This document shows, piece after piece, positions 33,869 through 34,272 of a stretch of 64,000 bases of DNA. Every line of letters begins with the position of its first letter. Positions within the stretch are counted from its first letter, which is position 1. Origin of the DNA: Candidatus Kryptoniota bacterium (GTDB lineage: Bacteria > Bacteroidota > Ignavibacteria > Kryptoniales > JAKASW01); assembly GCA_046706745.1 (NCBI GenBank), contig JBJKPC010000054.1, forward strand, positions 15,759-79,758, in the 5' to 3' direction. The notes beneath the pieces were generated by a model, which saw only the letters and a list, made by a program, of their open reading frames with translations, was not told where the DNA came from and did not search any database. Both the position numbers and the translations under genes were made by a program.

Positions 33869-33910
33869 AGTCCATTTACGCTGGGGCGGCAGGATTCGAA
33901 CCTACGAATG
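33869..33910 (-). repeat. 42-bp perfect direct repeat, downstream copy (tRNA-Gln 3' half + 12 nt trailer)
   Basis: agtccatttacgctggggcggcaggattcgaacctacgaatg is identical to 34189-34230 (compared base by base). Confidence 0.95.
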
Positions 33911-33958
33911 TCCCGACTACAATCTTGTAGTCGGGATGCCTTACCACTCGGCTACGCC
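33881..33958 (-). other. tRNA-Gln-derived tRNA-like element (anticodon arm replaced by an 11-bp hairpin; acceptor 5' strand damaged)
   Basis: Minus strand: ATAGGCG-TA-GCCGAGTGGTAAGGC-A-[TCCCGACTACA-AGAT-TGTAGTCGGGA]-CATTC-GTAGGTTCGAATCCTGC-CGCCCCA. The D-arm and T-arm match tRNA-Gln. A 26-nt perfect hairpin (33911-33936) replaces the 17-nt anticodon arm. Only 4 of 7 acceptor pairs remain. Confidence 0.6.
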
Positions 33959-34195
33959 TATCATTTTCAGAAACCTAGCGGTCCCTTTGAGGCTCTTTAC
34001 TTCTCTTTCCCGCCTCATCGCTTCCGCTCGTGTCTCATATTTCTCAAAGTACACTATCGACCAAGGCCTGTGGCCCCTTGTCGACCTGACTCTTCCTTCG
34101 TTATGCCTCTTGAGCCGATCTGAGAGGTCGCCGGTCTGTCCAACGTAGTACCTCTCCACTGTCTGACTCCTTAGCACATATACAAAGTAGTCCAT
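33941..34195 (-). CDS. Minimal GIY-YIG nuclease-domain protein (84 aa)
   Basis: 'YFVYVLRS...RYYVGQTGDLSDRLKRHNEG...WSIVYFEKYETRAEAMRREREVK' gives the GIY / YIG / R / E catalytic pattern. The ATG lies 5 nt after the tRNA-Gln 3' end, inside the 42-bp repeat. The last 7 codons and the stop read through the pseudo-tRNA D-arm. Confidence 0.85.
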   Translation of the reverse strand: MDYFVYVLRSQTVERYYVGQTGDLSDRLKRHNEGRVRSTRGHRPWSIVYFEKYETRAEAMRREREVKSLKGTARFLKMIGVAEW

Positions 34196-34230
34196 TTACG
34201 CTGGGGCGGCAGGATTCGAACCTACGAATG
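34189..34230 (-). repeat. 42-bp perfect direct repeat, upstream copy (within the intact tRNA-Gln)
   Basis: Identical to 33869-33910. Confidence 0.95.
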
Positions 34231-34272
34231 GCGGCTCCAAAGGCCGCTGCCTTACCACTTGGCTACGCCCCA
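34201..34272 (-). tRNA. tRNA-Gln (anticodon UUG)
   Basis: Hand-folded cloverleaf: TGGGGCG/CGCCCCA acceptor, GCC-AAGTGGTAA-GGC D-arm, GCGGC-CTTTGGA-GCCGC anticodon arm (UUG), GTAGG-TTCGAAT-CCTGC T-arm, discriminator G. CCA is not encoded. Confidence 0.9.

Follow-up and report, generated by a model that had tools for sequence, protein, structure and literature searches.

What is a gene for an 84-amino-acid (aa) nuclease doing between an intact tRNA gene and a remodeled copy of that same tRNA gene? The question is posed by a 64-kb stretch of DNA from a Candidatus Kryptoniota bacterium (contig JBJKPC010000054.1 of assembly GCA_046706745.1; the whole stretch is referred to here as the window), in which a GIY-YIG open reading frame (ORF) and a pseudo-tRNA-Gln form a unit of ~320 bp directly downstream of a tRNA-Gln(UUG) gene. 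An initial annotation, made from the letters alone, had proposed a very small selfish element, without an integrase, that duplicates a tRNA gene or uses it as a target and leaves one copy in working order. Our comparative analysis supports a proposal of this kind: such units recur at more than 20 tRNA species, form arrays of up to 8 units, and are represented by occupied, decayed, ORF-less, and empty sites. Both this architecture and the way in which it is distributed are well established; from them we infer a mechanism, and by analogy to known systems we consider it probable that the locus is one copy of a tRNA-gene-resident selfish element, upheld and amplified by nuclease-stimulated recombination between tRNA-derived repeats.

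Organization of the tRNA-Gln/GIY-YIG locus

The locus comprises the following parts, listed in the direction in which it is read.

34201..34272, minus strand: intact tRNA-Gln(UUG) gene (ARAGORN, whose call spans 34200-34272, and Rfam RF00005)
34196..34200, minus strand: 5-nt spacer CGTAA between the discriminator base and the ATG (read from the sequence)
33941..34195, minus strand: GIY-YIG nuclease ORF, 84 aa, Slx1/UPF0213 type (Pfam, PDB profiles, AF2/Foldseek)
33937..33961, minus strand: 5' half of the pseudo-tRNA-Gln (repeat match, Rfam alignment, fold)
33911..33936, minus strand: hairpin TCCCGACTACAA-GA-TTGTAGTCGGGA in place of the anticodon arm, bases 27-43 (inverted repeat, fold)
33881..33910, minus strand: 3' half of the pseudo-tRNA-Gln, comprising the variable region, T-arm, acceptor 3' strand, and discriminator (direct repeat)
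33869..33880, minus strand: trailer CGTAAATGGACT, made up of the spacer and the 7 initial nt of the ORF (ATGGACT), where the 42-bp repeat and the unit end

The sequence features recorded in the initial annotation were all recovered. The tRNA-Gln(UUG) is intact, with a full-length Rfam match of 66.7 bits against a gathering score of 29; it is the sole tRNA of the window, and its CCA is not encoded (ARAGORN, Rfam). The GIY-YIG-only ORF starts at 34195, 5 nt after the tRNA, and runs into the copied tRNA: its terminus (...IGVAEW-TAA) places the last 7 codons and the stop inside the pseudo-tRNA 5' half, the stop being the TAA of the D-loop sequence GGTAAGG. This D-arm copy (33937-33958) matches the real one (34248-34269) at 21 of 22 bases, with one substitution, while the acceptor 5' strand is degenerate (ATAGGCG versus TGGGGCG in the real tRNA-Gln). 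The hairpin that stands for the anticodon arm has arms that are 100% complementary and folds in RNAfold as 11 bp with a 4-nt loop. Beyond it, the 3' half is identical to that of the real tRNA-Gln and, with the trailer, makes up a 42-bp perfect direct repeat (33869-33910 and 34189-34230, offset 320 bp). The 23-mer core of this repeat gave 0 matches in 100 shuffles, and neither the hairpin nor the 42-bp repeat has a further copy within the 64-kb window, where none is expected by chance.

As a whole, the second tRNA-Gln copy adopts a cloverleaf fold in which the acceptor stem has 4 bp (RNAfold; -33.8 kcal/mol, z = -4.2). The Rfam tRNA model scores it at 35.6 bits against 29, over model positions 4-67 only and with 16 nt where the model has the 7-nt anticodon loop, and ARAGORN, which calls the real tRNA-Gln, makes no tRNA call on it. 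We regard it as a pseudo-tRNA because of this partial match, the replaced loop, the short acceptor stem, and the missing ARAGORN call. The GIY-YIG gene is the single ORF of the unit, and the flanking genes (RidA, prs, L25, and pth) are housekeeping genes in conserved synteny.

An ordinary origin was considered, namely, an integrase att duplication at the tRNA 3' end, a plain tandem duplication of tRNA-Gln with decay, or an assembly artifact at the 42-bp repeat. Direct repeats of the 3' part of a tRNA are the classic scar of integrase-mediated islands, and the 42-bp repeat present here is perfect. However, the 320-bp insert contains no tyrosine or serine recombinase gene and sits between housekeeping genes, and the second copy also has a 5' half and a conserved hairpin, unlike any att scar. 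The distribution of the unit, described below, bears on the same point.

A minimal nuclease of the Slx1/UPF0213 type

The ORF product matches the Pfam GIY-YIG family (PF01541; E = 2.4e-16, 60.2 bits versus a cutoff of 22.6) over residues 3-72. Across 25 homologs, the catalytic residues Y6, Y17, G19, R27, and H31 are invariant and N32 and E63 are conserved at >=90%, so the loss of catalytic residues that had been envisaged as a possibility is not borne out. Profile searches against the PDB recovered 1zg2 (E = 1.3e-14), 1ywl (3.9e-11), and Slx1 (5e-07). An AlphaFold2 (AF2) model has a predicted local distance difference test score (pLDDT) of 92.7, with low confidence only at the last 4 residues, which are tRNA-encoded; its secondary structure (strands 3-10, 16-21, and 45-53; helices 24-32 and 56-69) corresponds to the sheet-plus-helices GIY-YIG fold. 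Foldseek ranked UPF0213, Slx1 (query-based template modeling score [TMq], 0.66-0.73), and HIGLE ahead of the catalytic domains of I-TevI and UvrC. On the basis of its sequence and modeled fold, we assign the 84-aa protein to the minimal single-domain nucleases of the Slx1/UPF0213 type. It contains no accessory or DNA-binding domain and is therefore likely to be a structure-selective nuclease; its nearest characterized relatives are structure-specific nucleases.

Other affiliations found no support. The NCBIfam group I intron endonuclease model gave 17.5 bits, below its cutoff of 56. A phage-borne family is ruled out, as no PHROG family matches the protein and a scan of viral contigs recovered only distant, partial relatives (27-48% identity). 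A known anti-phage defense protein is also ruled out, the PADLOC match being 16 bits to PDC-S14 over 30 residues of the GIY motif.

Occupied, decayed, and empty sites at the same syntenic slot

The closest homologs, 63-79% identical to the protein, belong to Candidatus Kryptoniota and to metagenome-assembled genomes (MAGs) labeled "Bacteroidetes," and all of them share one gene order: RidA or other genes, tRNA-Gln, 5 nt, GIY-YIG, pseudo-tRNA, prs, L25, pth, and S6. The length of the 5-nt spacer is constant in Kryptoniota-group loci (distance -5 in 12 loci). In the pseudo-tRNAs of these relatives the anticodon arm is always replaced by a hairpin, the outer stem of which is constant (TCCCGAC/GTCGGGA or TCCCGC/GCGGGA) and the inner stem variable with compensating changes. 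Some carry extra hairpins in the D-loop (locus L005) or the T-loop (L001, L005, L013, and L015), and an Rfam E-value scan of 13 related loci found only one pseudo-tRNA (L006), the rest being too interrupted for the tRNA model. The identical run of the trailer measures 12 nt in the window, 11 in L010, 5 in L006, 3 in L007, and 1 in L012. Two loci, L009 and L011, have two ORF units each, and L009 has in addition 5 ORF-less units of 131 bp upstream.

Since the same architecture is present in more than 10 independent assemblies, it is neither an assembly artifact nor a private accident. This recurrence, together with that at more than 20 tRNAs, excludes an integrase scar, a plain duplication, and an assembly artifact, and we regard an ordinary origin as exceedingly improbable.

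The comparison with empty sites that the initial annotation had suggested uncovered several site states in the same clade. Occupied sites are those of the window, L001-L013, and L087-89. Pseudogenes are found in L006 (stop at codon 42), L014 (truncated, without a pseudo-tRNA), and L015 (ORF disrupted). The ORF is missing from L083 and L090-92, and only L084-86 look like a naive empty site. L083 and L090 are states of ORF loss rather than naive sites, because an old relic is present; the L090 Prs is 95% identical to that of the occupied L010, and the downstream sequence is common to both. Presence/absence polymorphism with degenerate copies at a conserved locus, as seen here, is the pattern expected of a homing cycle.

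A relic of this kind probably exists in the window too, as a third, much more degenerate tRNA-Gln copy in the prs leader, which was absent from the initial annotation.

~33731..33800, minus strand: probable degenerate hairpin-bearing pseudo-tRNA-Gln relic, prs leader (repeat and alignments; moderate confidence)

It is made up of a GCCGGATGGTAAGG D-arm-like piece, a hairpin, and then ...ATCC...GGATCCTT, and it includes a repeat (33783-33796 versus 33939-33952) of 86% identity. It matches no Rfam family and aligns with tRNA-Gln and with relics in L004, L008 (hairpin TCCCGACACGAATACGGTCGGGA), L010, and L090; relatives such as L008 hold clearer versions. In the window and in these four loci, the prs leader resembles a decayed hairpin pseudo-tRNA of greater age; the locus therefore seems to have been occupied more than once, and the leader of a housekeeping gene may be built of element relics.

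The GIY-YIG ORF is kept under strong purifying selection: the ratio of nonsynonymous to synonymous substitution rates (dN/dS) is 0.05-0.16 among syntenic Kryptoniota ORFs, with synonymous sites saturated (proportion of synonymous differences [pS], 0.5-0.8). Within Kryptoniota, GIY-YIG identity also tracks Prs identity (Spearman 0.67), and these two observations together indicate a gene that is old at the locus, mostly vertically inherited, and under selection. The tRNA-derived parts behave differently. Lineage-specific variants common to a tRNA and its own pseudo-copy (CACACG in L015, CATCCG in L009, and GGAGG/CCTCC in L012 and L013) show that the pseudo-tRNA arms evolve in concert with the neighboring real tRNA. 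As the pseudo-tRNA 3' half stays identical to the tRNA, variants included, despite the saturated synonymous sites of the ORF, continuing gene conversion is required.

Three further peculiarities were seen at this slot. L005 (2809-2830) and L013 (2789-2810) share a different conserved insert, TCGCAAAG(C/T)GATCCCTTCGGGAGA, at the same T-loop position of the pseudo-tRNA, while their T-stems differ. A GC-rich palindromic insertion (GCGTGCCTGCGCACCGAAGTGCTTCAGCACGCAGGCGTGAGCG) lies within the GIY-YIG ORF of L015 (2683-2725) and of protein P0012, in frame in P0012 and disruptive in L015. In L011, both tandem ORFs begin with ACG rather than ATG 5 nt after the tRNA (2498-2500 and 2808-2810), which implies either a non-AUG start or recent inactivation.

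Recurrence beside diverse tRNA genes and tandem arrays

A genome scan with an alignment of 11 closer homologs as the query recovered 345 relatives, of which 79 loci were retrieved. They come from Kryptoniota, Bacteroidota, Ignavibacteriota, Acidobacteriota, and others. A tRNA on the same strand abuts the ORF or array in 66 of the 79 (52 upstream and 17 downstream). The copies beside other tRNAs that the initial annotation had proposed to look for do exist, GIY-YIG homologs being found at more than 20 anticodons. Of the 69 loci having an adjacent tRNA, 63 proved in BLAST searches with each locus's own tRNA to carry fragments of that tRNA on the opposite side of the ORF; these are mostly 100% identical and typically span bases ~5-27 and 43/46-76, the anticodon arm (27-43) being missing.

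Tandem arrays of 2-8 units are present in 17 of the 79 loci, for example:

L056: tRNA-Pro, then 8 units of 343 bp
L031: tRNA-Pro(CGG), preceded by 6 units of 412 bp
L024, cultured Cyclobacterium xiamenense: 4 units
L036: 4 units

Two layouts can be distinguished. In the first, which is that of the window, the real tRNA comes first and a pseudo-copy follows every ORF; in the second, hairpin-bearing pseudo 5' parts precede every ORF and the real tRNA comes last. Pseudo-copies of the second layout in L031, L036, and L048 lack the T-arm and the acceptor 3' strand, with the hairpin kept. Tandem units of tRNA-derived sequence plus nuclease, with a junction of the ORF 3' end and the tRNA 5' end, are what amplification of the type known from the phage nuclease SegB (see below) would produce.

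Arrays without any ORF occur as well: 5 units of 95 bp in L117, 7 of 104 bp in L151, and 5 of 131 bp in L009. They are possibly non-autonomous derivatives of the element. The ORF-less arrays at L117 8575-9060, L151 9045-9700, L009 1769-2420, and L024 1812-1977 adjoin real tRNA-Pro, tRNA-Ala, and tRNA-Gln genes.

The TCCCG/CGGGA hairpin as a hallmark of the family

Hairpins of the form TCCCG...CGGGA are found in 57 of the 79 loci; their density is 1.39 per kb within the element zone versus 0.16 outside (8.6-fold). In 65 distinct hairpins, stem pair 6 is A-T in 33, C-G in 20, G-C in 3, T-A in 1, G/T in 4, and a non-pair in 4, and pair 7 covaries likewise. Of 60 tRNA-derived left flanks, 35 stop at base 26, and of 59 right flanks, 39 resume at base 44; it is thus exactly the 5-bp anticodon stem that has been swapped. 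A minority of the family hairpins lie instead in the D-loop or T-loop. Since the conserved TCCCG/CGGGA stem is common across phyla, the hairpin is a family-wide cis element and not a local accident.

A reciprocal, DNA-only scan of metagenome contigs with the pattern TCCCG-N3-33-CGGGA-N8-GGTTCRAATCC recovered 80 loci, 32 of them real tRNAs and 48 of pseudo-type; 14 of the latter lie at contig edges, which leaves 34 decidable. A family GIY-YIG ORF is located within 500 nt in 21 of these 34, in each case on the same strand and generally at a distance of 0-34 nt, and the other 13 are ORF-less arrays, such as those of L117 and L151.

These counts bear on whether the hairpin pseudo-tRNA is itself the true repeat, comparable to a miniature inverted-repeat transposable element (MITE) or a repetitive extragenic palindrome (REP), that spreads by host recombination or an unnamed trans factor, with the ORF as a trapped passenger. 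The ORF-less arrays (L117, L151, and L009), the similar hairpins inserted in D-loops and T-loops of pseudo-copies, and the 13 of 34 decidable matches without an ORF all agree with such a repeat. Yet an adjacent, same-strand ORF in 21 of 34 is far over background for an 84-aa gene family, the retained catalytic residues and low dN/dS are unlike those of a passive passenger, and the ORF-less arrays look like non-autonomous derivatives of an autonomous element; we judge a passenger ORF to be quite improbable.

The same evidence permits a bolder version of the selfish-element reading, which we put forward tentatively as a possibility. Here, the unit would be an autonomous mobile element of ~320 bp that pairs an 84-aa, structure-selective Slx1-like nuclease with a tRNA mimic. 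The TCCCG/CGGGA hairpin would serve as the cis site, with cutting of the hairpin or cloverleaf, and the near-universal D-box and T-box of tRNAs, with the tRNA-derived arms, would provide portable homology for copying beside or between tRNA genes. The ORF-less arrays would be MITE-like derivatives mobilized in trans. If so, the units would be among the smallest protein-coding mobile elements and would represent a new recombination-parasitic class in the Fibrobacteres-Chlorobi-Bacteroidetes (FCB) group and neighboring phyla.

Some genuine tRNAs (L103, L105, L119, L132, and others), in particular tRNA-Val(UAC) and tRNA-Phe(GAA), have a natural UCCCG/CGGGA anticodon stem, which may be the evolutionary source of the hairpin stem of the element.

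Proposed expression from the tRNA promoter and a possible host role

How the ORF is expressed was addressed by promoter and terminator scans, which revealed one candidate element.

34329..34359, minus strand: promoter-like block upstream of tRNA-Gln, CTTTGATTTT, ~17 nt, (C)TATATTTTATGCC (sigma-70-type scan, alignment)

The sigma-70-type scan, which does not cover Bacteroidetes-type promoters, reads this region as TTGATT-17-TATATT; in the alignment it appears as a CTTTGATTTT-N17-CTATATTTTATGCC block ~55 nt upstream of tRNA-Gln that is invariant in 11 aligned loci, occupied and empty. It resembles the Bacteroidetes TTTG/TAnnTTTG promoter type. The same sigma-70-type scan, with the same restriction, found no promoter-like site between tRNA-Gln and the ORF, and a scan found no terminator-like site through or downstream of the pseudo-tRNA. 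The upstream block is the presumed promoter of a tRNA-ORF-pseudo-tRNA co-transcript, and such co-transcription is the economical reading of the locus, consistent with the expression from the tRNA promoter that the initial annotation had suggested. The ORF would have no promoter of its own and would be transcribed from that of the tRNA, and tRNA 3' processing, of the RNase Z type because no CCA is encoded, would free a nearly leaderless mRNA. In Cyclobacterium and Marinilabiliaceae the ORF lies after the tRNA terminator, so only low read-through expression is expected there.

Co-transcripts of this form have precedents: E. coli tufB is part of a tRNA-mRNA co-transcript, and the t-elements of plant mitochondria are tRNA-like mRNA processing signals. 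As in those systems, a tRNA-like fold that RNase P/Z could cut lies by an mRNA and could set its ends, with a tRNA 5 nt upstream and a tRNA-like fold 3' in the present case. The differences are that the pseudo-tRNA 5' end is within the ORF here and that many family members lack the T-arm and acceptor part.

The main alternative is that of a domesticated, host-beneficial Slx1-like nuclease tied to tRNA genes or transcripts, in which the pseudo-tRNA would be a "t-element" defining the mRNA 3' end and the arrays would be by-products of direct repeats; candidate roles are the resolution of structures at heavily transcribed tRNA genes and RNA processing. In its favor are the strong purifying selection with saturated synonymous sites among syntenic orthologs, the mostly vertical inheritance, the fidelity of protein clades to tRNA type, a pseudo-tRNA cloverleaf whose intact T-arm and partial acceptor stem amount to a minimal RNase P/Z substrate, and the existence of a bacterial Slx1-like domain fused to a TrmH tRNA methyltransferase, for which an RNA role was suggested (Dunin-Horkawicz 2006, PMC1564403). 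A host function is harder to reconcile with a patchy distribution within one clade that includes pseudogenes and clean absences, with up to 8 near-identical tandem copies, and with an association that spans more than 20 different tRNAs instead of a single pathway context. Moreover, the downstream-tRNA pseudo-copies of L031, L036, and L048, which lack the T-arm and acceptor and so are no RNase P/Z substrates, keep the hairpin nonetheless. These members rule out a universal RNA-level role of the pseudo-tRNA, and we think domestication unlikely.

Proposed mechanism and points against it

Returning to the favored reading of a resident selfish element amplified by recombination, we envision the following cycle. 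The predicted nuclease would cut in or close to the DNA of the tRNA, pseudo-tRNA, or hairpin. The break would be mended by homologous recombination that pairs the tRNA-derived repeats, and a lost element would thereby be restored, which amounts to homing between sister chromosomes or alleles. The same repair would hold the pseudo-tRNA arms identical to the tRNA and would let arrays grow or shrink, with one tRNA remaining intact throughout. The hairpin swap would leave the extra tRNA copy unable to decode, and the hairpin itself might be the cis site of the nuclease or what makes the pseudo-copy immune to cutting.

Several points weigh against this reading. The nuclease activity, the target, and the mobility of the element are all things that we infer. 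Site-specific homing enzymes normally need an accessory or DNA-binding domain, and the 84-aa protein, which has none, sits in the Slx1 branch and not in the Seg/I-TevI branch. The observed dN/dS is equally compatible with an active homing endonuclease gene and with one that is useful to the host, and the correlation with Prs identity implies largely vertical inheritance. Protein clades follow tRNA type and layout, from which it appears that tRNA switching has occurred but is rare. Amplification does not strictly depend on an ORF in cis, because ORF-less arrays exist, and ordinary unequal crossing-over between repeats, without a nuclease, could make arrays. Immunity of the pseudo-copy alone leaves the conservation of the hairpin stem sequence unexplained. 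Given the mostly vertical inheritance and strong purifying selection, "long-resident" or partly domesticated is as apt a description as "mobile."

Comparison with known systems

The closest known system is that of phage SegB, a free-standing GIY-YIG homing endonuclease from the tRNA cluster of T4/T6 phages that cuts in tRNA genes (PMC2330249). Work from 2026 showed that it drives tandem amplification of a tRNA-Tyr+segB unit in a UvsX/UvsY-dependent manner; the unit junction arises where the tRNA 5' end and the segB 3' end share a microhomology, and it truncates the SegB C terminus (PMC13096335). The likenesses are a GIY-YIG gene among tRNA genes, a cut motif (RAWTSGAAC) that resembles the T-loop box, an ORF-into-tRNA junction as in the window, and arrays as in the window's relatives. 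In contrast, SegB belongs to the I-TevI/Seg branch, is encoded by phages, exceeds 200 aa, and has a DNA-binding part at its C terminus, whereas the protein studied here is chromosomally encoded, 84 aa long, limited to the catalytic domain, and of the Slx1/UPF0213 type; SegB units carry intact tRNAs, without the anticodon-arm-swapped pseudo-tRNA and conserved hairpin of the present element.

The best sequence and structure matches are the stand-alone UPF0213/Slx1-like proteins BH0048 (1zg2) and EF2693 (1ywl), which have the same minimal single-domain form (PMC1564403). We found no report linking these stand-alone proteins to tRNAs, pseudo-tRNAs, hairpins, or arrays in the literature searched, the coverage of which was incomplete. 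The nuclease domains of eukaryotic Slx1, which acts with Slx4, and of plant HIGLE share the fold of the 84-aa protein (TMq range given above). Both enzymes prefer branched DNA, flaps, and stem-loops, a preference that, by analogy, suggests how an 84-aa enzyme without a DNA-binding domain might find hairpin or cloverleaf DNA. They differ in being large multidomain repair proteins that need a partner and are neither selfish nor linked to tRNA genes. Integrase-borne tRNA islands likewise have tRNA genes as their targets, re-create an intact tRNA, and leave its 3' part behind as a direct repeat; they differ in that they are kilobases long, encode a tyrosine recombinase, and use a short att core, without a 5'-half copy, an arm swap, or nuclease-only content. 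The GIY-YIG gene of Tn7/Tsy (PMC10293859) was considered and is unrelated.

In the full texts searched, with incomplete literature coverage, we found no account of small bacterial GIY-YIG genes that are accompanied by pseudo-tRNAs or arrays; within that limit, the initial annotation's impression that the architecture had not been described agrees with ours.

Implications and atypical occurrences

The elements constitute a widespread, apparently undescribed family of tiny residents of bacterial tRNA genes. If the selfish-element reading holds, many genomes of Bacteroidota, Ignavibacteriota, Kryptoniota, and related lineages hold an unrecognized layer of tiny nuclease elements that remodel tRNA loci through duplicated tRNA parts, arrays, and relics entering the leaders of neighboring genes. 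It would also give the enigmatic bacterial stand-alone Slx1/UPF0213 nucleases a first concrete biological context and would carry the SegB principle, nuclease-driven amplification of a tRNA locus, from phages to bacterial chromosomes. The minimal pair of enzyme and hairpin is open to testing. On the practical side, the repeats are likely to break or collapse short-read assemblies, and tRNA finders miscall hairpin pseudo-tRNAs as odd, suppressor, or undetermined tRNAs.

FCB-type elements were also found in MAGs labeled Synechococcus, Dehalococcoidales, Saccharibacteria, Limnohabitans, and Hadarchaeota (L019, L030, L033, L055, L057, L059, L069, L072, and L075), which reflects either binning contamination or horizontal transfer.

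Concrete miscalls come from ARAGORN, which reads the hairpin pseudo-tRNA-Pro of L041 (2262-2337) and L038 (2262-2338), with the sequence CGGGGTGTAGCGCAGTCCGGTAGCGCA-TCCCGATTTTRAATCGGGA-GGGTC..., as tRNA-Stop(UUA), tRNA-Gln(UUG), or undetermined; the "tRNA-???" calls in L051, L128, and L138 are of the same kind.

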